A DNA stretch of 22,684 nucleotides, taken from positions 1 to 22,684 of the forward strand of contig JAITVV010000041.1 of the NCBI GenBank assembly GCA_031285625.1. The letters are read 5' to 3'. Shown in pieces: positions 2,129 through 19,443 of this stretch. Position 1 is the stretch's first letter; each line of letters opens with the position of its first letter. The notes beneath the pieces are model-generated. The model ran no database searches. It was not told where the DNA came from and worked only from the letters and a program-made list of their open reading frames with translations. Source of the DNA: Prevotella sp. (GTDB taxonomy: Bacteria > Bacteroidota > Bacteroidia > Bacteroidales > Dysgonomonadaceae). A program made the translations under genes and the position numbers.

Positions 2129-4582
2129 CTAAATAAACAGATTCACATTTGCGTTTTCGGCTCTGTCCAGATAAGCAGCCACCCCCCCAATGGTAATATT
2201 ATCCAATAACTCCTCTTTTTTGATACCCATCACATCCATCGACATAGAGCATGCTATAAATTCCACACCATTATCCAAGGCTTGTTGCATAAGGCTTTCA
2301 AGACTGTCGATATTTTTATCTTTCATAATCCCGCGCATCATCTTACTACCCAGTCCTCCCATATTCATCTGGGATAATCCTAGCTTTTTACTGCTCGATG
2401 GCAGCATCATACCAAACATTTTTCCCATAAAGTCTTTCTGTACAGCGGGCTTCTTCGCTTTTTTAATTACATTCAGTCCCCAGAAAGTAAAAAATATACT
2501 TACTTTCTTACCCGAAGCTGCTGCTCCATTGGCGATAACGAAAGATGCCAATGCCCGGTCCAAATCGTCACTGAATACCACAAGTGTTTTATTATCTTTT
2601 ATGCTGCCATTCGTTACAGGACAAATCTCATCTTTAGCTTTTTTCTCCACTGTAGCTGTTATTACCCCGCCTGAATTATTCATGCTTATTACTTCAGCAC
2701 CTACCATACGGCACCACCCGTTAAGGTCCTCGCCAAAAGCCTGATCGGTAACTTTTATTTCGAGACGATCGCCCGGAATGATTAGGTCATAGTTCTTTTT
2801 CAGTTGCATTATCGGGCCCGGACATTGCAGTCCGCAGGCATCTATATTGATTGTCTTTATTGTTGTATTTTCTTTATTTTCCATTTTGCCATCATCTTTA
2901 ATAACTACATCACATGTATTTTTAGGTGAATTATCTGCTACAGCACACGAATATGTCTTATATCCTCCTGAAAGATTGTAGACATTAGTATATCCATGCT
3001 GCAAAAGTATGCGCGAACTGATATATCCCCGCAACCCGACAGCGCAGTAAACCACTATTTTCTTATCTGTTGGTATCTCATTTAACCTGCTGCGAAGTTC
3101 ATCCACAGGGATATTCAATGCTCCCTTAATATGTCCGAATTCATATTCTTCTTTTGTACGGGAGTCTATTATAATCGAATCTGCCCGATTCAGATCCGCA
3201 ATATCACGCCATTGAATAATATTTACTTTTCTCTTCAAAATATTTTCAGCCACAAATCCAGCCATATTCACAGGGTCTTTTGCTGACGAATAAGGCGGAG
3301 CATAAGCATGTTCTATTTCTTGTAAATCGTAGATAGTACCGCCATTTCTTATAACCTGAGCAAAGAGATCGATGCGCTTGTCCACACCATCAAATCCGAC
3401 AACTTGTGCTCCTAATAGCTTACCATTATCAGGAGAAAATATTACCTTAACAGAAAGAGGTAAAGCATCCGGATAATATCCGGCATGTGAACTGCCATGC
3501 GTGAACGATGATACATGTTCTATCCTTTCCCTGTTCAGTAATTTGGATGAAGCTCCTGCAGCAGCAACGGTCAGATCAAAAACCTTTGCTATCGAGGTAC
3601 CTATGGTTCCTCTATACTTGTATTTATTACCATCTATAATATTATCGGCAACAATACGGGCTTGTTTGTTTGCAGGACCAGCCAAGGGTATTAATGAATG
3701 TTTATTAATAACAGGATTGAACACTTCTACTGCATCACCCAAAGCATATACATCATTATCGGATGTTTGCATATAATCATCAACTTTAATTCCTCCCAGA
3801 GATCCCAGTTCCAAACCGGCTTCTTTTGCCAGTTTGACCTCAGGACGCACACCAATACTGAATATCACCATATCTGTAGTAATCTCCTTACCACTCTCCA
3901 AGACTACTTTTATCTGATCACTAACTGGTTCGAACCTAGTAACCCCTTCTTCGAGAAGCAATGAAATATTTTTTTGAATTAGATGCTGATGTACGATGGT
4001 AGCCATCGAAAAATCGATGGGAGCCATTACCTGATTATTTTTTTCTACAACAGACACTTCCAAACCTGCGTCGTGCAGATTCTCTACCATCTCTAAACCT
4101 ATAAAACCACCACCTACTACAACAGCTTTTTTAGGTTTATATTGATCTATATATGCTTTTATTTTATCCATATCGGGCACATTACGCAAAGAAAAAATAC
4201 GTTTGTCTCCTATTCCCGGCATAGGTGGCTTAATCGGTTCTGCACCTGTTGATACCACCAATTTGTCATAACTTTCTGTATAATCTTTATTGGCAGCAAT
4301 ATCATGAATTGTTACCATTTTGTTTTGTATATCAATATGAGTTACCTCAGATCTCACCCGGATATCTATATTGAAGCGATTGATAAATCCTTCTACTGTT
4401 TGCACAAACAGCCTGTCACGTTCACTGATAGTGCCGCCGATATAATATGGAAGGCCACAGTTTGCATACGAAACATATTCACCTCTCTCAAATAATACTA
4501 TTTGCGCATTTTCATCCATACGTCTCAGCCGTGCAGCTGTTGTAGCCCCTCCGGCCACACCTCCTACTATTAGTACTTTCAT
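2129..4582 (-). CDS. CoA-disulfide/persulfide reductase-family flavoprotein fused to rhodanese, TusA/SirA and DsrE/DrsH domains
   Basis: GGVAGG FAD site, SYANC redox Cys, GGGFIG NAD site, YAPPYS, rhodanese CAVGLR, TusA CPGP, DsrE-like FFTFWG...ACSMS. Confidence 0.93.
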   Translation of the reverse strand: MKVLIVGGVAGGATTAARLRRMDENAQIVLFERGEYVSYANCGLPYYIGGTISERDRLFVQTVEGFINRFNIDIRVRSEVTHIDIQNKMVTIHDIAANKDYTESYDKLVVSTGAEPIKPPMPGIGDKRIFSLRNVPDMDKIKAYIDQYKPKKAVVVGGGFIGLEMVENLHDAGLEVSVVEKNNQVMAPIDFSMATIVHQHLIQKNISLLLEEGVTRFEPVSDQIKVVLESGKEITTDMVIFSIGVRPEVKLAKEAGLELGSLGGIKVDDYMQTSDNDVYALGDAVEVFNPVINKHSLIPLAGPANKQARIVADNIIDGNKYKYRGTIGTSIAKVFDLTVAAAGASSKLLNRERIEHVSSFTHGSSHAGYYPDALPLSVKVIFSPDNGKLLGAQVVGFDGVDKRIDLFAQVIRNGGTIYDLQEIEHAYAPPYSSAKDPVNMAGFVAENILKRKVNIIQWRDIADLNRADSIIIDSRTKEEYEFGHIKGALNIPVDELRSRLNEIPTDKKIVVYCAVGLRGYISSRILLQHGYTNVYNLSGGYKTYSCAVADNSPKNTCDVVIKDDGKMENKENTTIKTINIDACGLQCPGPIMQLKKNYDLIIPGDRLEIKVTDQAFGEDLNGWCRMVGAEVISMNNSGGVITATVEKKAKDEICPVTNGSIKDNKTLVVFSDDLDRALASFVIANGAAASGKKVSIFFTFWGLNVIKKAKKPAVQKDFMGKMFGMMLPSSSKKLGLSQMNMGGLGSKMMRGIMKDKNIDSLESLMQQALDNGVEFIACSMSMDVMGIKKEELLDNITIGGVAAYLDRAENANVNLFI

Positions 4583-5495: not shown

Positions 5496-5625
5496 ATTAA
5501 AAAAATCTTCTCAAAGCTATTGCAGGATTCAAATCCTTATCCTATCTTTGCATCGCATTTGAGAGATAATGCAACCTCAAAAAAACGGTGTGGTAGTTCA
5601 GCTGGTTAGAATACCTGCCTGTCAC
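5496..5625 (+). repeat. attL direct repeat (tRNA promoter, leader and 5' half of tRNA-Asp)
   Basis: 130 bp matching 17221-17352 except one substitution (GCAACC/GCAGCC) and A7 versus A9. Contains the -7 box TATCTTTG at 5543-5550. Confidence 0.95.
5587..5625 (+). pseudogene. Truncated 5' half of tRNA-Asp(GTC)
   Basis: GGTGTGGTAGTTCAGCTGGTTAGAATACCTGCCTGTCAC, after which identity to the tRNA stops at the end of the anticodon loop. Confidence 0.92.
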
Positions 5626-5660
5626 AAAGTAACAAGTTTAAAATATAACTCAATATATCA

Positions 5661-5696
5661 AGCAATTACAGTAAAATGTAGTTGCTTTTTTCTTTT
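5661..5696 (+). terminator. Terminator just inside attL, overlapping an IHF-consensus site
   Basis: AGCAATTACA-gtaaaa-TGTAGTTGCT followed by a T-tract. TATCAAGCAATTA at 5656-5668 fits WATCAANNNNTTR. Confidence 0.7.
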
Positions 5697-5719
5697 GGTT
5701 AAGGTATTGGTTAAAACAA
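5696..5719 (+). repeat. Putative integrase arm-type sites, left end
   Basis: Tandem 12-mers TGGTTAAGGTAT and TGGTTAAAACAA. The same motif recurs at 16993-17016 and 17050-17061. Confidence 0.7.
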
Positions 5720-5804
5720 GTGTTTTTTACCATGATTGATTAATAATTTATTGTTAATTCACTCTGTAAAATATCCTAACATAATGGATAGGAAAGTTAT
5801 GTTA

Positions 5805-6413
5805 TTATAGTTTATTATTAAAATATAGATTTATGGAATCAAATAATATAAGGACTCCTTTATCTTCATCTATAGATTTTGCATATAGATATAATTCATT
5901 AAGAGTATTTGAAAAATTAAGATTTGGATTATTAAGAAATCTGTTTCTATTATTAGTAGTATGCTCTTTTATCATATCATAGTCATATTTAAAATTACTC
6001 CAAGTTAAATATTTCTCAAACTTTTCATGTAATTCTATAATCCAATCAATAGAAGTATTTACTATTAAATCCCAAGCTAATTTATCTTGATATTTTTCTA
6101 ATAATTCAGCATCCCAACATAATACAGACATATTGAGCCAAAGCATACCCCAATCCCATTTATCAGAGAATTTATTTATTAATTCTACAGACCACTTTAT
6201 ATGCTTATTTGAAGATACTTCTTTCCAATTTAAAACAGCTTCCCATTCTTCTAATAAATCTATATCAAATGGATAATAAAGAGAGAAATTTTTAACAGGT
6301 GATTGCACTCTGTATAACGTTTTTATCTTCTCTTGCATATCTATTCTAATATTATCTTCAAAACCTATTTGAACTATAGTTTTATCTTCTTTAGTGATTA
6401 CTTCTATTATCAT
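5805..6413 (-). CDS. Hypothetical protein with ~25-aa tryptophan repeats
   Basis: Repeating W..EL(I/L)EK(F/Y).DK.(D/A)W...(S).N units. Confidence 0.7.
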   Translation of the reverse strand: MIIEVITKEDKTIVQIGFEDNIRIDMQEKIKTLYRVQSPVKNFSLYYPFDIDLLEEWEAVLNWKEVSSNKHIKWSVELINKFSDKWDWGMLWLNMSVLCWDAELLEKYQDKLAWDLIVNTSIDWIIELHEKFEKYLTWSNFKYDYDMIKEHTTNNRNRFLNNPNLNFSNTLNELYLYAKSIDEDKGVLILFDSINLYFNNKL

Positions 6414-6420
6414 ATTTTTT

Positions 6421-6729
6421 TTAAGTTATAAAACTCATATTGTATTGGATTTTCTTTGATTTACATTTAGGGCAAAATAGTTTTTTTTCTCTTTCTAATA
6501 TACCTCCACAGCTACAATGTATTTGTTTATTATTATGCCAATCTTTGATTGATTGGAATTGTCCACATAATTGACATTGTAGCCCTGTTGTCGAGGTATT
6601 TAAACCATGAGTAAACGATACTATTTCTTTCTGATAGTTGCAGTCTAAGCATTGAATAATTCCTATACCTCCTATCTTCCAAAAATACAGATAGGTATCT
6701 TTTTCTGTAGTTTCTATTTGAGATTTCAT
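6421..6729 (-). CDS. Small multi-zinc-ribbon protein
   Basis: CLDC, CQLC, CSC and CPKC Cys pairs in 102 aa. Confidence 0.75.
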   Translation of the reverse strand: MKSQIETTEKDTYLYFWKIGGIGIIQCLDCNYQKEIVSFTHGLNTSTTGLQCQLCGQFQSIKDWHNNKQIHCSCGGILEREKKLFCPKCKSKKIQYNMSFIT

Positions 6730-6745
6730 TATTTACTTCAAGTAA

Positions 6746-7231
6746 TCATTTTATACGTACATAAGTGACAGAGTCGTTACTGATATTTGGAGTTGGTTGT
6801 ATCAATATCATTTTATTATTTTCTATAAAACCTTCATAGGTGTTTGAAGGAGTTTCATTTGTTGTAATTGATAGAGAAGAATAATTATTTTGATAATAAC
6901 TATATACTTTTTGTGTTGTATTTGTTATAACGAAAGAAACATTATCATTATAGCTATCTTTGGATTCCTCGATCTTTTCAAATAAAACATCTATATTATT
7001 CTGAAAAGTATATTTTATAGTTGTTCTACTCATATGATATTTTGTAATCCATACTTCTCGCCCATTTTCCCATTTATCAAAAACAGGATATGAAAAGGCA
7101 GAGCCAAATTGTGTTTGCCATGATGTACCAATTATATCGTATTTTATATCTTGGGTTTCTTCTTCATTTTTATCACATGAAGTAACAGAGATAAGATACA
7201 TTACTATTAAAATAATTTTTAGTGTTTTCAT
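6746..7231 (-). CDS. Hypothetical lipoprotein
   Basis: MKTLK-hydrophobic-TSC lipobox followed by acidic DKNEEE and a beta-rich body (IIGTSW). Confidence 0.75.
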   Translation of the reverse strand: MKTLKIILIVMYLISVTSCDKNEEETQDIKYDIIGTSWQTQFGSAFSYPVFDKWENGREVWITKYHMSRTTIKYTFQNNIDVLFEKIEESKDSYNDNVSFVITNTTQKVYSYYQNNYSSLSITTNETPSNTYEGFIENNKMILIQPTPNISNDSVTYVRIK

Positions 7232-7233
7232 TT

Positions 7234-7887
7234 TTAATTCATTATAGTGTATAAAATGTTAAATTTTCTAATTGCTGATATGTATTCTGATATATTCTGA
7301 ATAAATAGTGATTTATGAACATACAATTCATAAACTTGGAAGTCCTTACTTACCTTCTTGAAATCGTTTAAATCTAATCCTACTATAATTTTTTGAGGAT
7401 GCTCATTTAGAATAGATAGGAAATTATCACTATTAAATGGTATTATAACACTCATTGTATTAATAGCCTGAGTGTAGAATTTTCCTTCTTCAACCTTTTT
7501 TAACTCTGTTATTTGTAATTCTATAGTGTCTTTTCTTTTATCAGGACTTTTAGATTTATCAAAATTTATGACTAAAAAATCTTTTATCTTTTGAGTATCT
7601 GTATAGCAACTAAGATGTTTATATACAGTTATAATATTACCTTTAGGTAGCTCTTTGGTTTGCACCTCTCTAAAATCATCAAGATTGATAGGTATGTAAG
7701 AATTAACTAAACTCATTAAATCAAATAAGTTCTTTTCTGTTGAAGGATATACTAAGGTTATAGTTTCTGTTGATGAAAAATATGTGCTATTATTTTCTTC
7801 ATTTATAGGTGATACTTCAACAAATAAGACTTCACCTATCTCATTATCTGTTTTTCCATTAATATTCAATATTTTATATTTTTCCAT
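7234..7887 (-). CDS. Hypothetical protein with an apparent two-fold internal repeat
   Basis: 217-aa ORF. INLDDFREV...VYKHLS and LDLNDFKKV...YVHKS suggest duplicated domains. Confidence 0.7.
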   Translation of the reverse strand: MEKYKILNINGKTDNEIGEVLFVEVSPINEENNSTYFSSTETITLVYPSTEKNLFDLMSLVNSYIPINLDDFREVQTKELPKGNIITVYKHLSCYTDTQKIKDFLVINFDKSKSPDKRKDTIELQITELKKVEEGKFYTQAINTMSVIIPFNSDNFLSILNEHPQKIIVGLDLNDFKKVSKDFQVYELYVHKSLFIQNISEYISAIRKFNILYTIMN

Positions 7888-7952
7888 GAAATAAAATGTA
7901 TTAATTGCTTACTCTAAATCAGTTTTCAGCATCCCTGTTTTTATTTATATTG

Positions 7953-9284
7953 CTATAATATATCTTCCCAAAATTTCTGATCTTGTTGGTCTATATCAAG
8001 CCCTGAATTATAATATTCACTATCATAAATAGATTTATGTTCCTGATAATTATTACATTGTTTTTGAATAACTTTAGTATTATTCTCTTTTAATGATAAT
8101 ACTGCTCCATGATTAATTAGAAGCTTAATAATCTCAGTATTATTATCTTCATAAGCCTTATCTAAAACAGTTTTATCTTTATATCCATTATCATTTATAT
8201 CTAATCCATTTTCTATTAAAAGTGCTAACATTGAGGAAGATATATATCCATATGCTTTAAATAGTAAGGAAACAGTATAATAATAATGAGCATCATAATA
8301 TCTTGTTTCAGTATAGTTAGAACAATATTCATAATTATAATCTTCATGCTCATAACTCTCTAATTTCTCTTCATGTATTGATACAGTAAGTTTAGAGCCT
8401 TTTTGAATTAAGTAGTTGACAATATCTATATGGTTATTTTGAATTGCATATAGGAGTGCTGTATTTCCTTTTCTATCTTCTAAGTTTATGTATTCTTCTT
8501 CTCTAATATGGTTAGATATGAAGCTTCTTCTTATAGAAGTTGATTTATTATATTCCTCTTCACATACTTTATTATGCTCTACTAGTTTCTTAACTATATC
8601 TGTATAGCCCATTTTTGAAGCTATATGTAGTTCACAAGGATAACATTCTTCAAGGTATTGATAGCCATAATAAAGGTTAGAAAAATAGGAATGAGAGTAG
8701 CTTGTGCGTTTATGAAATATCAAGCCCCCTTCTTTATCATTATCTAGTAAGTAATCAATGATTTCTGTATACCTATTTTTAACAGCTTCATATAAAGCTC
8801 TAAACCATTCTTCCAAAGGAGTACAATATTGAATATTTTCAACATGAATAAGAAAAAACTTTAAGGCTTCTAAATTTCTTTTTTCAGAAGCATCTGATAG
8901 AGAGAAAATCCCTTGTTTCCTGTATTTTTCTAAAATATTATTCTCTGGTGCTTCATTTATCTGATAATCTTTATTTTCATCTATTTTGGCTTGAATTTCT
9001 TCTTTACTTAAAGTGTTTGGTTGAGTATTATTATCTAATATCGCACTTCTTATCTTTCTTTTTCTTATGGATGGGGGAATAGTAGGTTGAGGATTACTTA
9101 TTACACTATCACTATTAAATAATGAAGTTGCTTCTTCTACTATTTCTCCTACTTCTTCTGTTGTTTCTTCAGATATTACTTGAGCTTTATTAGAATCTAA
9201 TCTTTCTTGTTTTGCTTCATTTAAAGCTGTATTTCTACTAGGTCTTCTCTTTCTAGGAGAAGGTTCTTGAGGTTTTCTTCCCAT
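7953..9284 (-). CDS. Ankyrin repeat protein with a disordered basic N-terminus
   Basis: GNTALLYAIQNNHIDIVNYLIQKG, LHIASKMGYTDIVKKLVEH and TVLDKAYEDNNTEIIKLLINHGA. Confidence 0.85.
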   Translation of the reverse strand: MGRKPQEPSPRKRRPSRNTALNEAKQERLDSNKAQVISEETTEEVGEIVEEATSLFNSDSVISNPQPTIPPSIRKRKIRSAILDNNTQPNTLSKEEIQAKIDENKDYQINEAPENNILEKYRKQGIFSLSDASEKRNLEALKFFLIHVENIQYCTPLEEWFRALYEAVKNRYTEIIDYLLDNDKEGGLIFHKRTSYSHSYFSNLYYGYQYLEECYPCELHIASKMGYTDIVKKLVEHNKVCEEEYNKSTSIRRSFISNHIREEEYINLEDRKGNTALLYAIQNNHIDIVNYLIQKGSKLTVSIHEEKLESYEHEDYNYEYCSNYTETRYYDAHYYYTVSLLFKAYGYISSSMLALLIENGLDINDNGYKDKTVLDKAYEDNNTEIIKLLINHGAVLSLKENNTKVIQKQCNNYQEHKSIYDSEYYNSGLDIDQQDQKFWEDIL

Positions 9285-9310
9285 ATCAATACCTTTGTTG
9301 TTGAGGTATC

Positions 9311-9480
9311 AATAAAATAAAGTAGGCATGATACTATCCTTACTGCTATCAAGGTAGTCACCACAACACCCAGCCACAATAAGGAAGCTCATGCCTATAA
9401 CATGAACATCTACTTATTACTGTTGTGGCTAATTTAAAAGTGGTGAATTTTTGATAGCACTAGTAATAAAGCAATGCTTT
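9311..9480 (-). ncRNA. Putative structured leader/antisense RNA with alternative (terminator/antiterminator) pairings
   Basis: Nested stems 9344-9352/9451-9459, 9358-9364/9440-9446 and 9372-9379/9423-9430 compete with 9323-9331/9389-9397 and 9337-9345/9377-9385, which are followed by a U-rich tract on the minus strand. A TAnnTTTG box lies at 9542-9549 (-). Confidence 0.65.
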
Positions 9481-9697
9481 ATATTATGTATATCCTAATC
9501 TATTTTATCTCTCCATATTATTAATGATTAAATATTTATGACAAAAATAACTATTTTATCAAGAATAGAATCATTTAACAGAAGAAGATTAGACTATAAT
9601 ATTGGCATGAGCTCATAGCCCACTATCTTGATAGCAAATAAATAAAATATATGATTACAAAATAGAATACTACAAGGCTTGCAGTTCTTATATAGTT

Positions 9698-10978
9698 TTA
9701 AAATGGAAAGCTATCTTCTGTATCATCATCAGAAGCAATGTAGTTATAGTGTTTTTTATGTTTGATATATTCAAATGGAGTTTTGATTACATCTACTTTT
9801 ATTTCAACTTCTTCTAATGTGACTAGATTTCTGTCTAAGCTAATCTTTTTTGGAGTGGCTCTATTGCCCGTAATAAAATAGTTATCAGCAATAGCTTCAT
9901 CAAAATGCTTAATAAAGGCTTCTCTTATTCTGGAGCATTTCTCATTGATAGAATTTAATGTTGGATTAACAATATCATTGATGCTTTTCTCCATATCACC
10001 AATATTTTCTCTTCCTGATACTTTCTTATATATAGCAATTAGTTCATCTCTGTAGTCAGGTAAATTCTTAAATAATATTCCTTCTGGATGATTCAAAAAT
10101 AAGAAAAATACAGCTTTAGGAAGTGGATACATGGTTATTTCCAAATTATTATAGTCTGGTAGAATAATCTTATATTCATTAGTGATAATAAGCCTGCTTA
10201 ACTTCACTGAATCAATAGAAAATATGGATTTCAACACCATCTCATTGATACCTTTTTGCTTCAAAGCTGCAATACGTTCCTTAATTTCTTCTATTAGCTT
10301 TTGGGATTCAGAATCAAATTCATAGTCTGCATTGTCATCTGGATTTTCTATGTAAGGATAGGGAGGAGGGGAAGCACTGTATAATACATTGCCAGCACCA
10401 ACAGCACTTAAGTAAGCTCTGATCTGCTCCCATATTTCAGTTTTATCTAAATTGCTGAATTGATAATAGGAGAAGATATAGTAGTCATCTTCATTATCCT
10501 TATATCTTAACAAACCTCCTTCTAATGTAATAGCTACATCAGTGAAAGACATTGTTTTATCAATAATGTTCTGAGAAATTAAGCTGCTAGGTATAACATT
10601 CTTTTTATTTAATGTAGGATTTATATATTGGGCTTCTTCAATGCTTAAAGTCTTTATAAGTTTTGGTATATAAGTGAAATTATAACCTTTCTCTTCAAAT
10701 AAATTACATATCCCTTCATATTCCTTTGAGATAAAATTATTTAACTCCTCATTGAAATACTCTTCAAAATATATTACTTGTAGCTTATCTGGTATAAATG
10801 GAATATTTTTTTTGATTTTAATAATCAATGGTGGTTTTAAATACACTTTATCCATGAGATTTTTCTTTTCATCTAAAATACTGCTTTTTCTACAATAAGA
10901 AAATTTCCTAAGATAATGATATAAAAAATAGCACAGATACTTATTATAGTTTAGAAAGTACCTGTGCTGAAAACTCAT
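9698..10978 (-). CDS. Hypothetical protein with a C-terminal winged-helix-like domain (putative regulator)
   Basis: EITMYPLPKAVFFLFLNHPEGI...SINEKCSRIR...YFITG resembles an OmpR-type wHTH. Acidic tail DDDTEDSFPF. The start may be the downstream Met at 10855. Confidence 0.7.
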   Translation of the reverse strand: MSFQHRYFLNYNKYLCYFLYHYLRKFSYCRKSSILDEKKNLMDKVYLKPPLIIKIKKNIPFIPDKLQVIYFEEYFNEELNNFISKEYEGICNLFEEKGYNFTYIPKLIKTLSIEEAQYINPTLNKKNVIPSSLISQNIIDKTMSFTDVAITLEGGLLRYKDNEDDYYIFSYYQFSNLDKTEIWEQIRAYLSAVGAGNVLYSASPPPYPYIENPDDNADYEFDSESQKLIEEIKERIAALKQKGINEMVLKSIFSIDSVKLSRLIITNEYKIILPDYNNLEITMYPLPKAVFFLFLNHPEGILFKNLPDYRDELIAIYKKVSGRENIGDMEKSINDIVNPTLNSINEKCSRIREAFIKHFDEAIADNYFITGNRATPKKISLDRNLVTLEEVEIKVDVIKTPFEYIKHKKHYNYIASDDDTEDSFPF

Positions 10979-11378
10979 TTCTCTTTTACTTGTAATTTAG
11001 GACATTATAAGATGCAAAATTTAACAGAGAATTTTAGTTTATACTCTTCTGTTACATTTTTTGTCTTAGCTATTTTTATATAGAATGTCTAATTTCAGAT
11101 ACAAAAAAAAGTAATTATTATCACTCTTTCTTTCTGTTGGCTGGTTCATTGCATATCACATATAGGATAATATATCCTACAATAACTTTTAGCACTATTT
11201 CTAAAAATAATATCATAATGATTAAATAATTAAAGCCCCATCCATTACTGAATGAGGCTAATACAATAATAATAAAAAAGGTAATTAATATTCTTATAAA
11301 AGAAGAATATAAAGTTATCTCTCTTTATCTTTGACTTAAGCTCTTTGTTATATATAGATGTAAATGAGAAAGTTTTGA

Positions 11379-12233
11379 TTATTCTCCAATATATATTCTC
11401 CTAAATTTATTAAGACAATAATCTCTAGAATCTTCTATACTACAATCCTTAAATTTCCCAAATAATAGATACTCTAAAACTTCAAGATTATCATTATCTC
11501 TATAGTAATTACTAAAAGGGTTAGGATAAAAATTGAAATCTAAGATTTCAACATTTTCATATCTACTATCAAAGTTTATTGGAATTATTTCGTCTGCAAT
11601 AATCCATTCTATTCTTAAAAAGGAATGAATTATTGAACCAAACATGATAATTTTGTCTTTAAAATATAGAGGGATAGTAGCCCCATTTCCAAGTAAATCA
11701 GCAAATCTATCTGCTTTCAATAAATCTGTTACATCATTAGCAAAATGTATAATAGAATTTATTTGGAAAAATATCTGAAAGTTTTGAATATAATTCTCTC
11801 CTTTTATAAAAGATGATAAACTGCTTACATCAATCAATCTACAGCCTTTATCATCATGGCTCTTACAGCCTGCATGTTTTGCTATATATTTATAAAAATC
11901 TATTTTCTTCTGTTTCCATTTTGTACCATAAATATTCATGAAATCTATCTTGGAAGATGCTGCAATTTCATCATAACTATTTAGTACATAAGATAAGAAC
12001 TCATTGTAAGCATCATCAGCAGGTTTTGTTAATTCATTATTACAAAAATCACAAATTATTTGGGGGAATTTAAGCACTCTATCCTTTGAAGTATTTATTG
12101 AAGTGAGGCCACTTTCATTTATATAAAAACCATTGAATTTTTTACCTTTCATTAGTTTTCTTATTTCAGAAGCTTTAATTTTATGCTCTCCTGAATTAGC
12201 TTGATTCTCATTACATATCCAGCACTTTTGCAT
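11379..12233 (-). CDS. HNH-type nuclease domain protein
   Basis: N-terminal CWIC...EHKI...CDFCNN zinc-binding HNH pattern plus an unknown C-terminal domain. Confidence 0.7.
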   Translation of the reverse strand: MQKCWICNENQANSGEHKIKASEIRKLMKGKKFNGFYINESGLTSINTSKDRVLKFPQIICDFCNNELTKPADDAYNEFLSYVLNSYDEIAASSKIDFMNIYGTKWKQKKIDFYKYIAKHAGCKSHDDKGCRLIDVSSLSSFIKGENYIQNFQIFFQINSIIHFANDVTDLLKADRFADLLGNGATIPLYFKDKIIMFGSIIHSFLRIEWIIADEIIPINFDSRYENVEILDFNFYPNPFSNYYRDNDNLEVLEYLLFGKFKDCSIEDSRDYCLNKFRRIYIGE

Positions 12234-12297
12234 TTTCTAATTTATGTCTATAGTTAGATAAGGCTTCACTTGAAACCCTATCCAAATATAGAAAAAT

Positions 12298-13344
12298 TCA
12301 CTCAATAAACCACCTATACTCCTTATCTCCATGCAAAGCCTTATTAATGCCATGTACTAATTCAGTAGCATTTAAAGACCTGTCTAAGAAATTATCAATA
12401 TAACTACTCTTATTAGCCCCTGTAAACAAGTTATAAACATTCCACAGGCTGATAGAATTTGCTTCTCCAATACTGAAATTATCATCATTATAATAAGATT
12501 TAGCTACAGCATTTATATGAGTATCTGTAAATATCATTTCAGGTAATAACTTCTTCTCTTTTGGTGGTAAACATTGATACAGTTTTGATTTACCTATAAA
12601 TTGTGCAAACTGATGTTCTGTCATAGATGTATCTTTGAAAGAGTTCATCAAATGTAAGTGCCTTGCTGGGTTATAGAGTTGGATTAGTTCCATAACAGCT
12701 TTAAACAAGTCTGTTGCACTCATAATTTTAATCTCAGTCTTATAACCATCAGAAGATACACACATATTGCAACATACCAGATTCTTAAAGCCTATGAATA
12801 CTTTAAACTTCTCTGCTCCTTTCTTACTATACAGGTTCTCATGATTATAAGCTCTTACTCCTCCAATAGATAAATTAAGCCTGTTGCCCTCAATATCCTG
12901 ATAGATAGATGGTATTTCAAAACAGAAAGCCATCCTTTCATAATAAATAGTCTTATCACTCTCTAATAACTGATTGACTGGCTTATGTATTGCTTCTGAA
13001 ACTCTCCCTTTAATAACATGGGAAACTCTTATATCAGGCTCTAAAAACCTCTCATTAGGAAAGAATTTATTGGCTGCATTCCAGACTGTTTCTATAAAAT
13101 TGGAATGACTGATTGTTATTTCATTATCTTTAGAAAAGACAGGAACAACACATTCATTCTTTAAATGGAATAAGTCTGTTTCTTTGGTATTTGCTTCAAT
13201 AAAATGCTTTGCATTACTCCTCTCTAATGGTCTTTCTGATAGTGGGGTAATATCAATAATATTAGGGGTATATTCTGAATGATTATTTCTACTTTCAGGT
13301 AATATAATATTTGGTTTAATTTGTAATAGTTGCATTGTTTCCAT
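12298..13344 (-). CDS. DUF3871 family protein
   Basis: FIEANT...ECVVPVFSKDNE.TISH, YYERMAF, GGVRAYN and NLFTGANKSSYID match this Bacteroidetes family as I recall it. Confidence 0.85.
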   Translation of the reverse strand: METMQLLQIKPNIILPESRNNHSEYTPNIIDITPLSERPLERSNAKHFIEANTKETDLFHLKNECVVPVFSKDNEITISHSNFIETVWNAANKFFPNERFLEPDIRVSHVIKGRVSEAIHKPVNQLLESDKTIYYERMAFCFEIPSIYQDIEGNRLNLSIGGVRAYNHENLYSKKGAEKFKVFIGFKNLVCCNMCVSSDGYKTEIKIMSATDLFKAVMELIQLYNPARHLHLMNSFKDTSMTEHQFAQFIGKSKLYQCLPPKEKKLLPEMIFTDTHINAVAKSYYNDDNFSIGEANSISLWNVYNLFTGANKSSYIDNFLDRSLNATELVHGINKALHGDKEYRWFIE

Positions 13345-13450
13345 ACTTAAATTATGTTTGATAAATTAATAATAGATTGGTTTTTCTTAAAATTTGAATA
13401 GCTATTTATCTTAAATTCATATCATAACTATTTTGTATTTAAAAGGCAGT

Positions 13451-13486
13451 AAAAAAACAGGTAAGGAATATTTAAACTCCTTACCC
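13451..13486 (-). terminator. Intrinsic terminator after the 90-aa gene
   Basis: Minus strand GGTAAGGA...TCCTTACC stem followed by T7. Confidence 0.75.
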
Positions 13487-13508
13487 TTAAATATTAAAGT
13501 ATTGTATT

Positions 13509-13781
13509 TTATAATTTAGCTAAGGTTGTAGCTCCTGATGTTTCTCCTCTTTGATGCAGTAAGAAAAACATTTCTCCTGTCATTGGTACACATACTTGAG
13601 ATATAACAGGCATGGTTACTTCTCCTGTAATAACTCTTTTGGAACAAGCCCCTGTTTCTACTCCATAGGTAAAGAAGCATTTACCTGTAGATTCATTCCT
13701 TTTAATTTCAATCTCATGTACTTGTTGATTGTTTTTGAAGTCATTTACTGACCATGTTTGTAAGAATTTTAGATTTTCCAT
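13509..13781 (-). CDS. Small hypothetical protein (beta-rich, possibly OB-fold/SSB-like)
   Basis: 90-aa ORF with an A-rich leader and its own terminator. The fold is only inferred. Confidence 0.75.
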   Translation of the reverse strand: MENLKFLQTWSVNDFKNNQQVHEIEIKRNESTGKCFFTYGVETGACSKRVITGEVTMPVISQVCVPMTGEMFFLLHQRGETSGATTLAKL

Positions 13782-13811
13782 ATCACTTATTTTTTATATT
13801 AATATTTCAAC

Positions 13812-14013
13812 ATAGGGGGATTAACCCAATTTCCAAGTGACAGGCGGTGTTAAGTTATGATTATCTCACTCTTAAATACATATCTTGTTACACTCTAGCA
13901 GCAGCAGAAGAAAAAAGATAAAATAGTTATGTTATTTTATTGCTTCTGGTGGTGGGGTATTGGATTTATTAATAAAAAGGTAGGGGGATGTATAATCTCA
14001 CTTAAGCACATAT
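13812..14013. repeat. Structured intergenic region (candidate origin or ncRNA)
   Basis: Two TAGGGGGAT copies (13813, 13981), two ATWATCTCACT..TAA..ACATAT copies (13860, 13992) and a central hairpin at ~13904-13948. Confidence 0.55.
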
Positions 14014-14017
14014 AAAC

Positions 14018-14053
14018 AAAAAGCTAACAGGGGATTAATTTTTCTGTTAGCTT
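14018..14053 (-). terminator. Intrinsic terminator after the polymerase-like gene
   Basis: AAGCTAACAG...CTGTTAGCTT stem with a T-tract on the minus strand. Confidence 0.75.
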
Positions 14054-14074
14054 AAAATTGCAATCGTATGAATA

Positions 14075-15670
14075 CTATAACTTCATTAAAGCTTCTTTAT
14101 AATTCCAGTAATCAGTTTCTAATTTTGGAGGCACTCCAATAGTATTAGTTAATTCTTCTTCCATTATATTTTTAACAAAATTGAGATTCTCTACTGTAGT
14201 AACTATTGAGTCATGTATAGTAAATATAGGAATTTCCTGATTGCCTTCTTCCCAAACTCTTTTGCAGCATCTATGTAATACAATCTCACTTTCTATAGAT
14301 TGCAGTAAGCAAGCCAATGTTGCATGGTCTGTTGATTTTATTAATCTAAATACTTCATATACATTTGGGTGTATTTTAGAGAACATTTTTTTATGCTTAT
14401 ACATAGGCTGATTCAGATACTGATTTTTAGAAAAAAACACTTCAAACATCATATCTTTTACCTTTTGTCTGTCTATTTCTCTCCCTGATTCTTTTTTGAT
14501 TTGATCAATCATATATTCATAAAAATTTCCTTCTGAGACTTTTCTTTTATATGAGTTAATCTCCTGTGTATTTGTTATGTTATTTGTATAATCTTTTAAT
14601 ATTTTGTGTAATGGTGTGTTGTTAATAATTGTATTATTTATAAGTGTTTGAATGTTGGTTGGTAGATGAGTATAATTAAATTGAGTTGAAGTATTATCCC
14701 AAAATTGAGGGCTAAATAATATACAGGCTAGGTATGGTTGGCTATTTTTTATATCTAAATTTACTAGCCTTCTTCCTTCAAAAGTGATGAAATTTCTATA
14801 TACACTTTCCATGTTAGTCATTGCAGAGTGTAACCTGTGAACATTTGTATCTATCTTAGCATTATAATCATGTGTAGATAAAGAGTACAAATTGAATTGA
14901 ATAGCTCTTTTTTGAGTTTTGGGATGAATCTTATCTCCTTTCTTAGTCTTACTATTTTTCCATGTATTATATCCATCTTTAATTTTCTTCTCTGTGTAAT
15001 CGGATGCAAATTTTAAGGCTTTGTTAATATCAATATTTAACCCTTTCTGGGCATACCAATATCTTAAATAAGGATAGTTCAATAGAGGGTTATCAATTTC
15101 TATCCCTTCATCATTAAATATGCTGCTAGGAATAGTTTCTGTTTCTTTATTTATATGCCCTTTATATAGAATTATTTTAAGGGGTACATCTGCATACTTT
15201 TCTGTAAATCTATACCCATAAGATTTTTCATTTTTAATATAATGATTATCACACTCAATTACACCAGTATCAATTAAATAATCAAGATAATTTTTATAAT
15301 CTTTGAGAATAAAATCTCTAATTAGAGTTGAGTTAATTGGGACATAATCATCCTCAAAAATATTATTTTTATTATGGGCTGGAATAATAGTAATTAGGCT
15401 AATTACATACAAGAGCCTGTCTTTATCATAATAAATATTACTGCCTTTAGCCTTTAATTTACCATTATCAGACAAATAAAATCTATAATTAACAAGAGGG
15501 TATTTTTCTATATGCTCATCTATATCTAAATTTTCTGGAATAAAAGCCGATTTACCACTATGTTTAAATGCAACAACATTAAAAATGCCAAAAAACTTAA
15601 ATCTTTTATTGTCAGATATATTATCATTATCTTTTCCAAATAAATTCTTTAAATAATTAAATATACTCAT
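14075..15670 (-). CDS. Minimal family-A-like (TV-Pol-like) polymerase with an N-terminal wHTH-like region
   Basis: Collinear PolA motifs: HRLHS (GRLSS), motif A LDIKNSQP, motif B R.KVK.MMF..FF, LQSIESEI (IQGTAADI) and motif C TIHDSI. No exonuclease motifs recognised. Confidence 0.72.
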   Translation of the reverse strand: MSIFNYLKNLFGKDNDNISDNKRFKFFGIFNVVAFKHSGKSAFIPENLDIDEHIEKYPLVNYRFYLSDNGKLKAKGSNIYYDKDRLLYVISLITIIPAHNKNNIFEDDYVPINSTLIRDFILKDYKNYLDYLIDTGVIECDNHYIKNEKSYGYRFTEKYADVPLKIILYKGHINKETETIPSSIFNDEGIEIDNPLLNYPYLRYWYAQKGLNIDINKALKFASDYTEKKIKDGYNTWKNSKTKKGDKIHPKTQKRAIQFNLYSLSTHDYNAKIDTNVHRLHSAMTNMESVYRNFITFEGRRLVNLDIKNSQPYLACILFSPQFWDNTSTQFNYTHLPTNIQTLINNTIINNTPLHKILKDYTNNITNTQEINSYKRKVSEGNFYEYMIDQIKKESGREIDRQKVKDMMFEVFFSKNQYLNQPMYKHKKMFSKIHPNVYEVFRLIKSTDHATLACLLQSIESEIVLHRCCKRVWEEGNQEIPIFTIHDSIVTTVENLNFVKNIMEEELTNTIGVPPKLETDYWNYKEALMKL

Positions 15671-15764
15671 CTGTTAATTCATTATGTTAGGATATTTATA
15701 TTATGGTAAAATTAAGAAAAAGAACACATATAAAAATGTATTCTTTCCCTTAATTATCTCACAT

Positions 15765-16973
15765 TTATAGCAGGTACTTCATAGCTTCATCAATCTGACT
15801 ATTTTCAAAGCTATCTAAATATATCTGAGTGGTCTTTAAATCTGAATGCCCTAGAGTTTCTCCAATTAAGGCAATATTTACACCAGAGTTCTTTAATACT
15901 GTTGCATAACTATGTCTTGAAACATAGGTAGTGAGATTAACCTCAATACCTGTCATCTGTGATATTTTCTTTAAATACCTGTTCACTTTCAATATGACTT
16001 TCTTCTTCCTGTTATATTGCTGCATCTTGGTTTTATGTATAGTGTGATCCAGTATAGGAAAGATATATTCATTATTAGAATCAATATACATCTTCATTAT
16101 CTCTTTGGCTTCATCACAGATAGGTACATTTATTTTTCTGTGTGTTTTCTGCCTAATATACATAAGTCTGTCATTAGTTATATTATTGTGCTTCAAATTA
16201 GCCATATCAGAGAAACTAATACCACTGCATAAGTAGCTAAACACAAATAAATCTCTGCTGAGTTGGATATATTCCTTTTCTTTAGATAGGTCAAGATTCA
16301 TAATGAGCTTTACATTGTCTTTTGAGATAGCTCTTTTCTCAGTTCTTATGCTGAATTTGGAGATTTTGAAGTCATTGAAAGGGTATGTATCTCTTTTAGC
16401 ATATCTTCTCTCTATAGCCTTGTTATAGGTACTTCTCAGAGTTCTAAAAAATAGATTCATGGAGCTATCCTTACAATTTCTACTTCTTAACCACTTCTCA
16501 TAACCTAGCAAAAAGTTCATATCAATATCAGAGAAGGGAATATCTAATTTGCTCTTATAATAGGCTTCTAATGATCTCAGGGAGTCTTTATATACTCTTG
16601 AATTACCTATTTTATCAGATTGTTCCATTTCTTTTATTAGTTCTGTATAGAACTCATTTACACTCTTTAGCCTATGCTTTTCTTTGGGCTTAATTAATGT
16701 TGAGGCTGTAAATTCCTTCTCTTCTGCTTTTAGTTCTAATATCTTCTTTTGAAGCTCTGCTTTTCTATCAATGATTATCTTTTCAATATAATCTCTGTTA
16801 GGACAATTTGTTTTAGGCTGATTCTTGCTAAAATCCCAAAATGTCGGATTTATGGATATGCCTAAACTTTTGTACCTAGTTTTTCTGTCCTTACATATTC
16901 TAATCATTATAGGACTTTCTCCATTTGATAACTTTTTCCCTCTAAAACAAATTACATTTACTGTTGTACTCAT
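15765..16973 (-). CDS. int: Tyrosine integrase, Bacteroidetes IntDOT-like
   Basis: Arm-binding N-terminus (NGESPIMIRI...YKSLG), SAM-like domain and catalytic GISFSD / RQKT / YVSRHSYA / LGHSDLKTTQIY. Adjacent to attR. Confidence 0.95.
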   Translation of the reverse strand: MSTTVNVICFRGKKLSNGESPIMIRICKDRKTRYKSLGISINPTFWDFSKNQPKTNCPNRDYIEKIIIDRKAELQKKILELKAEEKEFTASTLIKPKEKHRLKSVNEFYTELIKEMEQSDKIGNSRVYKDSLRSLEAYYKSKLDIPFSDIDMNFLLGYEKWLRSRNCKDSSMNLFFRTLRSTYNKAIERRYAKRDTYPFNDFKISKFSIRTEKRAISKDNVKLIMNLDLSKEKEYIQLSRDLFVFSYLCSGISFSDMANLKHNNITNDRLMYIRQKTHRKINVPICDEAKEIMKMYIDSNNEYIFPILDHTIHKTKMQQYNRKKKVILKVNRYLKKISQMTGIEVNLTTYVSRHSYATVLKNSGVNIALIGETLGHSDLKTTQIYLDSFENSQIDEAMKYLL

Positions 16974-16992
16974 GATTCATTTAGTTGAATCA

Positions 16993-17061
16993 TGGTTAAA
17001 ACACTGGTTAAAACAAAACACTTCAAACCCTTTATTCAAGCCATTTTCATGGTTCAAACAT
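16993..17061 (+). repeat. Putative integrase arm-type sites, right end
   Basis: TGGTTAAAACAC TGGTTAAAACAA (16993-17016) and TGGTTCAAACAT (17050-17061), in the same orientation as the left-end copies. Confidence 0.7.
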
Positions 17062-17220
17062 TTTACTGAAAAATCAATGCAATTTTCCTGCAATTTTAAT
17101 ATTGAAATGATAAACTTTTAATTTTACTGACTAAGACAAGTTATTCAAACTCCTTTTCTACAAAAGATTCTCTAAAGACTGTATTTTTACCACTCTGATA
17201 AACAACTATTTGCAAAATAC

Positions 17221-17352
17221 ATTAAAAAAATCTTCTCAAAGCTATTGCAGGATTCAAATCCTTATCCTATCTTTGCATCGCATTTGAGAGATAATGCAGC
17301 CTCAAAAAAAAACGGTGTGGTAGTTCAGCTGGTTAGAATACCTGCCTGTCAC
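17221..17352 (+). repeat. attR direct repeat (replacement tRNA promoter and 5' half)
   Basis: Near-identical to 5496-5625. The -7 box TATCTTTG is at 17268-17275. Confidence 0.95.
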
Positions 17353-17390
17353 GCAGGGGGTCGCGGGTTCGAGTCCCGTCCATACCGCCA
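17314..17390 (+). tRNA. trnD: tRNA-Asp(GTC)
   Basis: 77 nt. Acceptor GGTGTGG/CCATACC, anticodon stem CCTGC-CTGTCAC-GCAGG, T loop GTTCGAGTC and encoded CCA. Confidence 0.98.
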
Positions 17391-17533: not shown

Positions 17534-18547
17534 TTATTTATATTCTCGCTGTAAATATTTCTCCACATAACGGCGAATAAAATGTTTAATATCTTTACTA
17601 AACATATACATCTCTTCTGATTTTCCAAATATTTCCCTATATATAGGGTGATCAAGCATTTTCAAAGTATTTTCAAAATTTTCCAATGACATCAACTTCT
17701 CAGTTTTAGTTTTAGATGATTTAAGTACTTTATATGTATCGAGTCCAATTTCATATATCCAAGGGAAATCATCTTTTAATAAGCTTATTATCATTAAAAA
17801 AGTTAAACTCGGATTTTCAAACTTCATTTCCATATGTATTATTTCTTCCAGCATCATAGGATGAAATTTTCTACGCCTTCTTATTTCAGGGTCATATAGC
17901 CTACTTTCAATTCGGGAAGGCAGAGCATCGATTTTGGATTTTAGTTCTTCAACAGTTTTAGATGACTGTATCCCCTTATCTATGTTTGAAACTGTAATTC
18001 TTAAATCAGAAATAGCTTCAACAATATCAGCCAAAGACCGTTCCTCAGCATCACCACTTTCCTTTAGCACTTTCAGGTCTAATGATACTGAAATAGGATT
18101 ATGAATTTCATTACTACCTGTTTCAATAGATTTTACTTGTGAGGCAATTTCTTCTTTTGCTGCCGCAACGCTATCTAAGTTGTGAAGATCAAATTGTATT
18201 ATTCTTGTTGCCGCGACATCAAAAGGGATGGCATCACCTTTTCTTATCATTTGGACAAGAGGTTTTCTTACCGCGTGTCTAACAGCTAATTCATAAAACA
18301 CATTTGGATTTCGTTCTGTTAAATCAGCAACAACAAGTTCCGCACTCACTATATATTCAATAATCTGTGTAGTAATAATGCCTGGTTCAGATATTTTATC
18401 AGCTCTAATCACTTCATATCCTAATTGTTTTACAGGTTCAGTAATTATGTGTTTTAATATCTGGTCGGAGCGTTCTCTTGTCTCGGAACCTTCCTCTCCT
18501 ATTGGAGATATAACAAAACAAATTTTCTTATCTTCTTTTTTAGCCAT
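17534..18547 (-). CDS. Nucleoside 2-deoxyribosyltransferase-like (TIR/NDT fold) domain protein with coiled coil and unknown C-terminal domain
   Basis: CFVISPIG...RAD...VVADLTERNPNVFYELAVRHA..KP...PFD pattern. Confidence 0.8.
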   Translation of the reverse strand: MAKKEDKKICFVISPIGEEGSETRERSDQILKHIITEPVKQLGYEVIRADKISEPGIITTQIIEYIVSAELVVADLTERNPNVFYELAVRHAVRKPLVQMIRKGDAIPFDVAATRIIQFDLHNLDSVAAAKEEIASQVKSIETGSNEIHNPISVSLDLKVLKESGDAEERSLADIVEAISDLRITVSNIDKGIQSSKTVEELKSKIDALPSRIESRLYDPEIRRRRKFHPMMLEEIIHMEMKFENPSLTFLMIISLLKDDFPWIYEIGLDTYKVLKSSKTKTEKLMSLENFENTLKMLDHPIYREIFGKSEEMYMFSKDIKHFIRRYVEKYLQREYK

Positions 18548-18566
18548 TGTTATTCAAATTATTAAT

Positions 18567-19443
18567 TCAAATTTTATCAAACCATTCAGGGTTTATCGTA
18601 ATCTCCTCGATCAATTCTGTTTTAACTCCAAGATTAAATTCTTTGAGTTTTTCACAAAGCAAATCTCCATCAATTAAATCAATCGGAGGTGCACCATCTC
18701 TTGACGCTTCCTTTATTGCATCACGTGTGAACTTTCCGGTAGTTATAAATATACCTTTGTCTGCACGCCCCCTGCATAGCACCTCTGAAATCTCGAATAT
18801 ATCCTGATGAAACAGAATCTTTAAACCTTTTACATTGAAAGAAAACATGAAAACTTAGAAAACCATTCAGTCTAACAATTCCTTTGCCATCAATGCCTCC
18901 ATCTCCAGATTTTCCCGTTACTTCAACTTGTACGAATCCACTTTCTCTTAAAATTCTCTGACTAAGCCTTTCAAAAGCAGAAGGATCTATATTTTGAATA
19001 ACTTTAAGAAGTTTATCTTTCCAATCTAATTTATCGGTTTCATTTTCGATAACTACTTCTAAGTTTTTACTCTGTATACCATTTTCTTCATTCGACAGAT
19101 AATTTTCAGTTCTAACAGTTTTAACAATATCATTAGAGCTAAAAGAATCTGGATTTATATCATTATCAATTAAAGCCCAAACAGCCCTTGATGAGTTTTC
19201 AACCAATCTATATTTTTTAAGATACGTTCTAGCCCATGCCAAACGATAATCAATCTCACTTTGTATACCGTCTTCTTTATGGGGAATGTTCAAAATATCC
19301 TCACTTATACTAGCTATTTGATAAACCTTTTCATTAATCTCTTCTATAGTACCAGAGCCATCTAGCTGTTTTAATGCTTTTAAAGTAGGGATAAGTAACT
19401 TGTCATAAGTTGGTACTTGATTGTGTATTTTCTTTTTTCCCAT
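18567..19443 (-). pseudogene. mrr: Mrr family type IV restriction endonuclease, +1 frameshift
   Basis: Mrr_N (YRLAWARTYLK) and Mrr_cat (SGDGGIDG...QCKR...FITT..F...IDLIDG) are split over two ORFs. Removing one G from the G5 run (18768-18772) restores AMQGRADKGIFITT and a 291-aa protein. Confidence 0.9.

Follow-up and report, generated by a model that had tools for sequence, protein, structure and literature searches.

The Element and Its Integration Site

The DNA analysed here, a stretch of 22,684 nucleotides (nt) from contig JAITVV010000041.1 (hereafter the window), belongs to a Dysgonomonas genome from a termite-gut metagenome assembly (4.84 Mb, 94% complete). It harbours an integrative element of 11.7 kb (approximately 5626–17352) from which the dinucleotide CG is almost completely missing, a property shared by related elements in other Bacteroidales. 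The target of integration is the anticodon-loop region of a tRNA-Asp gene. The two attachment (att) sites are 97.7% identical over 132 nt and contain an exact core of 47 nt (5579–5625 and 17306–17352). Recombinase gene and direct repeats at a tRNA gene together identify the locus as an integrative element. From the geometry, attL would represent the host copy, and the copy in attR would have arrived with the element. The intact tRNA-Asp gene apparently runs on a leader and a 5′ half supplied by the element, and such a replacement of the 5′ part is an unusual mode of integration. Just inside attR, at 16993–17016, lies a second repeat of the TGGTTAA type found inside attL. The tRNA-Asp leader in the att region (about 130 nt) is 80–95% conserved within Dysgonomonas, and the element is therefore considered adapted to this genus. 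A second tRNA-Asp-like leader with 73–76% identity to the att region was observed on contig C79 (5613–7213) with a tyrosine recombinase approximately 1 kb off; it may be another occupied site.

Table 1. Features of the integrative element and its att sites in the window (aa: amino acids; ORF: open reading frame).
Feature	Position	Strand	Remarks
attL: host copy of the tRNA-Asp leader and the 5′ 39 nt of the tRNA (5587–5625, up to the anticodon loop)	5496–5625	+	Direct repeat of 17221–17352
Candidate arm-type integrase binding site, TGGTTAA-type repeat just inside attL	5696–5719	+	Repeat family D14, 83% identity; putative role
Distal cargo, three ORFs (202, 102 and 161 aa), less purged	5805–7231	−	No known family
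217-aa ORF, start of the fully purged zone	7234–7887	−	No family
443-aa ankyrin-repeat protein (cargo)	7953–9284	−	Ank_2, E 1.6e-20; PADLOC candidate family PDC-M72A, E 7e-14
426-aa ORF	9698–10978	−	No family
284-aa ORF	11379–12233	−	No family
DUF3871 protein, conserved core gene of the element family, zero CG	12298–13344	−	PF12987, E 3e-148
90-aa conserved core protein	13509–13781	−	64% identical in relatives
531-aa divergent family-A-type DNA polymerase, predicted replicase of the element	14075–15670	−	Fold match of model
Tyrosine integrase with arm-binding domain	15765–16973	−	Arm-DNA-bind_5, Phage_int_SAM_5, Phage_integrase
attR and intact tRNA-Asp(GTC) gene at 17314–17390	17221–17390	+	Leader and 5′ half on the element side of the crossover

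All 11 ORFs of the element lie on the minus strand (Table 1). The label 'pol', which an earlier note on this DNA had given to the 531-aa ORF, was borne out at the level of the predicted fold. The protein model (predicted local distance difference test, pLDDT, 90.5) gave 125 PDB hits with Foldseek at E≤1e-3, and the top 50 were all family-A (Pol I-type) polymerases. The best match reached an E-value of 2.3e-6 with a probability of 1.00, at TM-scores of just 0.22–0.36. No Pfam or NCBIfam family matched the protein, and a polymerase profile found nothing among the sequences of solved structures. Residues D306 and H486-D487, which we take to be the putative catalytic carboxylates of motifs A and C, are invariant across 69 sequences. 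The assignment as a family-A-type DNA polymerase is thus supported at the fold level by the model. For the DUF3871 protein, of which related elements hold copies with 70% identity, no fold could be assigned: the best Foldseek match had an E-value of 0.07, the best Z of a wide VIA-align search was 6.2 and within noise, and the sequences of solved structures yielded a Doc-family protein at only E 0.06 as best hit.

Families of capsid, portal, terminase, relaxase and methylase proteins were not found among the 11 ORFs in Pfam, NCBIfam and PHROGs scans. According to these scans the element is free of virion genes as well as of conjugation genes, and its predicted gene content fits either a satellite of phages or a defence platform of the pipolin type. 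For the ORFs without family, PADLOC, PHROGs, NCBIfam and lax Pfam scans were uninformative. Next to the tRNA gene lies a host defence island (17534–19443) with a weak match to a TIR effector (PHROG 3634) and a Mrr-type methyl-directed restriction enzyme. It is followed by a second element (element 2) with HTH_17 and a VapE-like primase-helicase, which is normal in CpG.

Near-Absence of CG in the Element

By eye, about ten CG dinucleotides in some 9.7 kb had been counted in the earlier note, together with frequent GC dinucleotides. Exactly 10 CG are present between 7500 and 17220 (9721 nt, GC content 28.4%), at positions 8707, 9042, 9869, 10275, 11591, 13845, 14065, 15001, 15548 and 16845. With 193 expected from a mononucleotide model, this corresponds to an observed/expected ratio (o/e) for CpG of 0.052. 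GC occurs 238 times (GpC o/e 1.23) and TA shows no depletion (0.94). The longest run without CG in the purged zone spans 2254 nt. As stated in the note, none of the ten lies in the DUF3871 gene, two lie in the polymerase gene and one in the integrase gene, and CG is common in the surroundings: host genes at 2129–4582 contain 80 (o/e 0.87) and element 2 (21180–22384) contains 62 (o/e 1.04). The lesser depletion reported for the distal cargo was also found (10 CG and o/e 0.38 at 5800–7400; 9 CG and o/e 0.32 at 5626–7365). Its late arrival, proposed on these grounds, is plausible, as the distal part is enclosed by the element ends and its slot is variable in relatives. Among 300 other genomes of the order, the 202-aa ORF of this part has no close homologue; eight gave matches, all of them weak and repeat-like.

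Measured against the whole genome (CpG o/e 0.83, GC content 37%), the element stands apart. In 9350 genome windows of 2 kb the median o/e is 0.82 and the first percentile 0.44. Just two regions fall below 0.35, namely this element and a 28-kb prophage on contig C86 (0.1–0.33). Neither the other AT-rich islands of the host nor element 2, which the note had named for comparison, resemble the element in CpG o/e. Windows of 2 kb with matched GC content (26–32%) elsewhere in the genome have medians of 0.63–0.76 and a minimum of 0.36, compared to medians of 0.02–0.08 in the element, so the purge is not an effect of AT-richness. On the basis of the GC-matched host median (0.68), approximately 132 CG would be expected (Poisson P(≤10)=3.5e-43). 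Among 30 matches to tyrosine recombinases in the genome, only the one in this element is surrounded by purged DNA. The C86 prophage (about 111.9–140 kb; loci L001 and L002) encodes a serine recombinase and shows a CpG o/e of 0.24, with GATC at 0/72, CATG at 2/84 and CCGG at 0.

CG is missing irrespective of the reading frame. Observed and expected counts are 2 and 37.6 at codon positions 1–2, 4 and 51.5 at positions 2–3, 3 and 71.8 across codons (3–1), and 2 and 28.8 in the spacers. Codons ending in C occur, yet not ahead of G. The arginine codon usage, a further check named in the note, shows the same pattern with 100 AGR versus 2 CGN codons in the element and 60 versus 74 in host genes of the flanks. 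What is purged is the DNA sequence rather than particular codons.

Related Elements in Bacteroidales

Homologues of the polymerase were found in six of 34 other genomes of the genus. Two of these loci (20 kb each, 47% protein identity) exhibit an o/e of 0.00–0.06 over 12–14 kb with sharp edges, the remaining four an o/e of 0.15–0.58. A scan of named genomes across Bacteroidota yielded 79 polymerase loci, and the CpG o/e of the polymerase gene is ≤0.15 in 9, 0.15–0.35 in 12, 0.35–0.6 in 22 and >0.6 in 36 of them. Purged segments of 7–16 kb with CpG-normal flanks occur in Bacteroides fluxus, B. stercoris, Bacteroides sp. KG123, Parabacteroides, uncultured Bacteroidales and a Winogradskyella metagenome-assembled genome (MAG), the last with 5 CG in 14.2 kb. 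Homologous elements in other Dysgonomonas, Bacteroides, Parabacteroides and the Winogradskyella MAG have o/e values of 0.02–0.16. Near-absence of CG hence characterises, at the DNA level, an entire lineage of these elements in Bacteroidales. In a FastTree phylogeny of 69 polymerases the element of the window falls into a well-supported clade of 17 Bacteroidales members. Purged and unpurged members (Alistipes, CpG 1.16) are mixed in this clade, which indicates that the trait is labile.

Nine pooled purged elements (97 kb) contain 190 CG (o/e 0.079), and all ten NCGN classes are reduced to 0.033–0.167. The loss of CG is thus a dinucleotide-level effect that is not tied to particular 4-mers.

The same tRNA-Asp site is occupied in two further species, G007 and G013, by insertions of 11.9 and 14.5 kb between the same repeats. 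These elements (L222, G007:C98:28000–46000; L223, G013:C11:66000–85000) contain DUF3871 and are purged; the polymerase is absent and a helicase is present instead. Their genes also include SieB, a NACHT/STAND protein and, adjacent to DUF3871, a member of the UDG superfamily. Neither of the two conspicuous genes could be retained as a cause of the purge: DUF3871 also occurs in an unpurged Alistipes element (L065, CpG about 1), and the polymerase is found in unpurged elements too, while it is absent from the purged G007 and G013 elements and from the CG-poor Bacteroides phage crAss001 discussed below. Genes common to the relatives are those for the integrase, the polymerase or a DEAD/ResIII helicase, the 90-aa protein, AAA_24, DUF3871 and RadC. 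The anti-phage cargo comprises Abi_alpha, SIR2_2, TIR_2, ApeA-HEPN, AAA_21/AAA_15 ATPases, NACHT, SieB, an enzyme of the Eco57I/MmeI type, and Mrr_cat together with an M78 peptidase.

Outside of assembled bacterial genomes, DUF3871 was detected in 48 IMG/VR contigs. Two whole contigs, L186 and L200 (13,743 and 14,396 bp), contain DUF3871 and no virion genes, and their terminal repeats of 83 and 104 nt suggest circular molecules. Both are unpurged (CpG 0.75 and 0.64) and encode an integrase, AAA_24, VapE or a DnaD-like protein, RadC, a resolvase and a leucine-rich repeat protein. One 4.2-kb contig recovered from human faeces and catalogued as 'Bacteriophage sp.' encodes a DUF3871 protein with 65% identity; the contig is itself purged (o/e 0.09, 0 GATC).

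Comparison of closely related elements allowed us to follow the fate of new CG. In a Dysgonomonas pair (L011/L012) the elements are 96% identical over 8.1 kb and the host flanks 75%, which points to a recent transfer between species. Of 314 substitutions only three involve CG in either sequence, compared to 22.2 CG-creating ones expected from a spectrum-matched neutral model (Poisson P 4.6e-7). This deficit shows that the exclusion of CG is ongoing. Similar values were obtained for L018/L017 (1 of 167 differences with CG, 12.3 expected) and L021/L036 (2 of 90, 7.2 expected), and in an Alistipes control pair (CpG 1.19) 77 of 317 differences involve CG. Continuing purifying selection appears to keep out new CG.

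Other Avoided Words and a Phage with the Same Profile

CG is accompanied by other missing words. In the element of the window GATC occurs 5 times versus 26 expected from a Markov model, GGCC 1 versus 6 times and CCGG not at all. Short palindromes without CG are near normal (observed/expected: CATG 31/27, AGCT 42/53, TGCA 32/30). Across loci the counts are descriptive only, since kin are not independent: GATC was observed 4 times versus 110 expected and GGCC 3 versus 43 times in the purged class (9 loci), with ratios of 0.50 and 0.58, respectively, in the unpurged class (33 loci). In the pooled purged elements CTGCAG (0/18.7), GAATTC (6/29), GATATC (10/43.5) and ATGCAT (7/26) are likewise rare, and CCGG is at 0.13 in the nine. 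A study on the B. fragilis group reported 639 methylation motifs in total, and the two shared by all five species are GATC and CTGCAG (PMC10333322). The CG purge co-occurs with classical restriction-site avoidance in the same elements.

A phage of Bacteroides has the same profile. The first 50 kb of crAss001 (MH675552) show a CpG of 0.03, GATC at 0/133, GGCC at 0/21 and CTAG at 2/170. In phage B40-8, CpG is at 1.19 and 126 GATC are present. A huge phage with a weak homologue of the polymerase (LR756511) was considered as a further relative and rejected, as it is unpurged (CpG 0.99). Low CpG was also observed in the IMG/VR viral contigs L111, L114, L115, L137 and L143 (o/e 0.04–0.06, GC content 25–27%). 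The three that were searched (L111, L114 and L115) encode a 420-aa homologue of the element polymerase. At a CheckV completeness of 6–8%, these three probably represent fragments of phages with very large genomes.

Origin of the CG Deficit

Three causes had been offered in the earlier note, and they fared differently: evasion of a nuclease directed at CG, or a common history with phages, agrees best with the data, whereas deamination of 5-methylcytosine (5mC) and a CpG-poor donor are not favoured. The family-wide occurrence, the ongoing enforcement, the avoidance of GATC, GGCC and CTGCAG, and the crAss001 profile all fit the first. We therefore propose, with a probability of roughly 60%, that DNA arriving in cells without protection is under continuing selection against CG, and that this belongs to a general syndrome of nuclease avoidance which virulent phages of Bacteroidales also display. 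In transit between cells the elements would be double-stranded and unprotected, probably carried as satellites inside phage particles. Upon entry they would meet an agent that attacks DNA at CG, and the same pressure could have emptied the crAss-like phages of CG. We infer that this agent would be a nuclease reading CG as a dinucleotide, and that virions would mediate the transfer.

The uniformity of the loss also bears on the question whether one reader of CG is at work or whether hundreds of ordinary restriction–modification (R-M) specificities in Bacteroidales populations, many of them with CG in their sites, left a summed footprint. The wealth of methylation motifs in the B. fragilis group would supply such specificities, and the avoidance of several sites without CG (GATC, GGCC, CTGCAG, GAATTC, GATATC and ATGCAT) agrees with pressure from ordinary enzymes. 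In the C86 prophage the loss is indeed context-dependent, with CCGG at 0, TCGA at 0.17 and GCGC at 0.99 of the genome level; the retained GCGC matches the single HhaI-like C5-methylase of the host (contig C22). In the elements, however, all ten NCGN classes are reduced 6- to 30-fold, non-palindromic ones included (ACGA/TCGT 0.065), whereas the equally short CATG, AGCT and TGCA are untouched and GpC is at 1.2. A uniform loss of this kind demands site-specific enzymes for every context, and we regard the summed footprint as an unlikely origin.

Somewhat less probable still is decay driven by methylation, in which the element, a helper or a former host methylates CG and 5mC deaminates to TG/CA without selection. 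CA/TG is raised in most purged relatives (1.14–1.21 versus 0.97–1.09 in the flanks) and, markedly so, in the C86 prophage (1.33 versus 1.04). Within the main 7.5-kb block of the closest pair, the two differences that involve CG are each a transition between CG and CA. In the window itself CA/TG is barely elevated (1.06 versus 1.01 in the host), so that no TG/CA excess matches the missing CG. Moreover, AG/CT, which is not a deamination product, rises equally or more in nine of nine purged elements with flanks. No methylase is encoded in the element. The host has a single PF00145 gene with a full-length match to M.HhaI (E 1.5e-70), and no match above cut-off to N4-type methylases (PF01555) was found in the host genome (94% complete). 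A rough estimate indicates that a decay rate leading to an o/e of 0.02–0.05 would leave 10–15 of the 22 expected new CG visible at 4% divergence, compared to the three seen. Vertebrate genomes have a CpG o/e of roughly 0.2, and 0.05 in coding DNA lies below this value. Behind the HhaI-like methylase gene (ORF 1492–2466 of locus L010, C22:9461–13348) lie two overlapping ORFs (250 and 136 aa), which could encode a nuclease and a mismatch-repair (Vsr-type) partner.

A recent arrival from a CpG-poor, AT-rich donor, with a composition that has not yet drifted to that of the host, would account for the GC content of 28% versus 37% in the host and for the sharp edges of the purged zone. It is nevertheless highly improbable. 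Relatives with only 42–47% identity in the polymerase protein, residing in several genera between CpG-normal flanks, are equally purged, new CG is still excluded in the pair comparisons, and the tRNA-Asp leader in the att sites speaks for adaptation to Dysgonomonas.

Several observations weigh against selection by a CG-directed nuclease. An enzyme reading CG alone was found neither in this genome nor in the open literature (supplements and subscription journals were not covered), and if a nuclease of the host cut CG wherever it is unmodified, a methylase acting on all CG would have to accompany it; the one C5-methylase found resembles M.HhaI, and PF01555 gave no match above cut-off in the 94% complete genome. 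The raised CA/TG of the Bacteroides-resident relatives (1.15–1.21) indicates that transitions contributed to the loss, and the unpurged Alistipes elements among the close relatives show that the pressure is not universal. The pair test leaves protein-level constraint on the surviving changes out of account, and L036/L017 showed no significant deficit (7 of 152 differences with CG, 11.8 expected). With regard to encapsidation, the element was single-copy in the one run containing it (depth 43.7 versus 36.8 and 45.7 in the flanks). There it forms a contig of 11,427 bp, and no circular or empty-site joint was seen among the contigs, a result that does not contradict mobility. No homologue of the polymerase is present in crAss001. 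Since the element and the resident C86 prophage have no DNA or protein in common, a link between the two was rejected.

A simple host R-M system reading CG is unlikely because the host keeps its CG and shows no CG-wide methylase. In a more specific, though rather doubtful, version of the proposal, the DUF3871 elements would be satellites of CG-free Bacteroidales phages, crAss-like or others, and the purge would confer immunity to a bare-CG nuclease, either a host defence acting upon entry or a phage-made enzyme. In the latter case the enzyme would destroy all CG-bearing DNA in the infected cell, and the CG-free phage and its satellite would survive for packaging. Phage T4, by analogy, destroys cytosine-containing DNA while its own DNA is modified. 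A phage-made nuclease would explain how the host chromosome could keep CG without a CG-wide methylase. As a different reader of CG, phosphorothioate (PT) modification was considered and discarded, as C-G is not among the PT dinucleotides named in the available part of a gut-microbiome study (PMC12914056).

Avoidance of a word is usually the footprint of a known enzyme. In the present case it is near-absolute, concerns a word of two bases and has no matching known enzyme; we are not aware of any R-M system with bare-CG specificity. A near-absolute two-base footprint of this kind therefore points to an undiscovered CG-directed activity in a major order of animal-gut bacteria. These results further delineate a Bacteroidota family of integrative elements that encode a polymerase and carry defence genes. 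As crAss-like phages are hard to manipulate, CG-free elements in cultivable strains (D. hofstadii DSM 104969, B. fluxus YIT 12057) offer a tractable handle. The literature searched, which did not cover subscription journals and supplements, yielded no paper describing the element family or a loss of CG from Bacteroidales elements or crAss-like phages.

Comparison with Known Systems

A strong and genome-wide shortage of CG is also known from Mollicutes, where it is linked to the CG-specific methylases M.SssI and M.MpeI. Unlike there, neither the element nor its host yielded a methylase of the CG type, and the replacement is not dominated by TG/CA. The likeness to crAss001 consists in the near-absence of both CG and GATC and in a Bacteroidales host; the difference is that a small chromosomal element without virion genes is affected here and that the phage has no counterpart of its polymerase.

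With pipolins the element shares its small size, integrative nature, direct repeats derived from a tRNA gene, a DNA polymerase and recombinase of its own, and exchangeable defence genes (PMC11551731). Pipolins encode a primer-independent PolB (piPolB), whereas the family-A fold is the sole fold class matched here, and 99.8% of pipolins reside at the 3′ end of the tRNA gene in comparison to the 5′ half in the present case. Neither Bacteroidota nor CG loss is mentioned in the part of that publication available to us. Phage satellites such as PICI, P4-like elements, PLE and the marine VEIMEs are similar in size (10–15 kb) and in their combination of integrase, replication module and defence cargo without capsid and terminase genes, as far as the accessible text describes them (PMC9618062). 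For the present element, no helper phage, packaging signal or capsid-redirecting gene was identified. The DUF3871 elements among IMG/VR contigs and in the faecal 'Bacteriophage sp.' contig hint only indirectly at packaging by a helper.

A close parallel to the loss itself is restriction-site avoidance in phages, for which short words far below the composition-corrected expectation are described in the available part of the work by Rusinov et al. (2018, PMC6286503); GATC, GGCC and CTGCAG are avoided in this manner here. According to the same source, temperate phages show far less avoidance than non-temperate ones. In the present element, by contrast, it is a bare dinucleotide that is lost, in all NCGN contexts and from integrated DNA. 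While site avoidance as such is known, the new finding is the near-absolute purge of a dinucleotide in an integrated, polymerase-encoding element family of Bacteroidota, together with evidence of selection.

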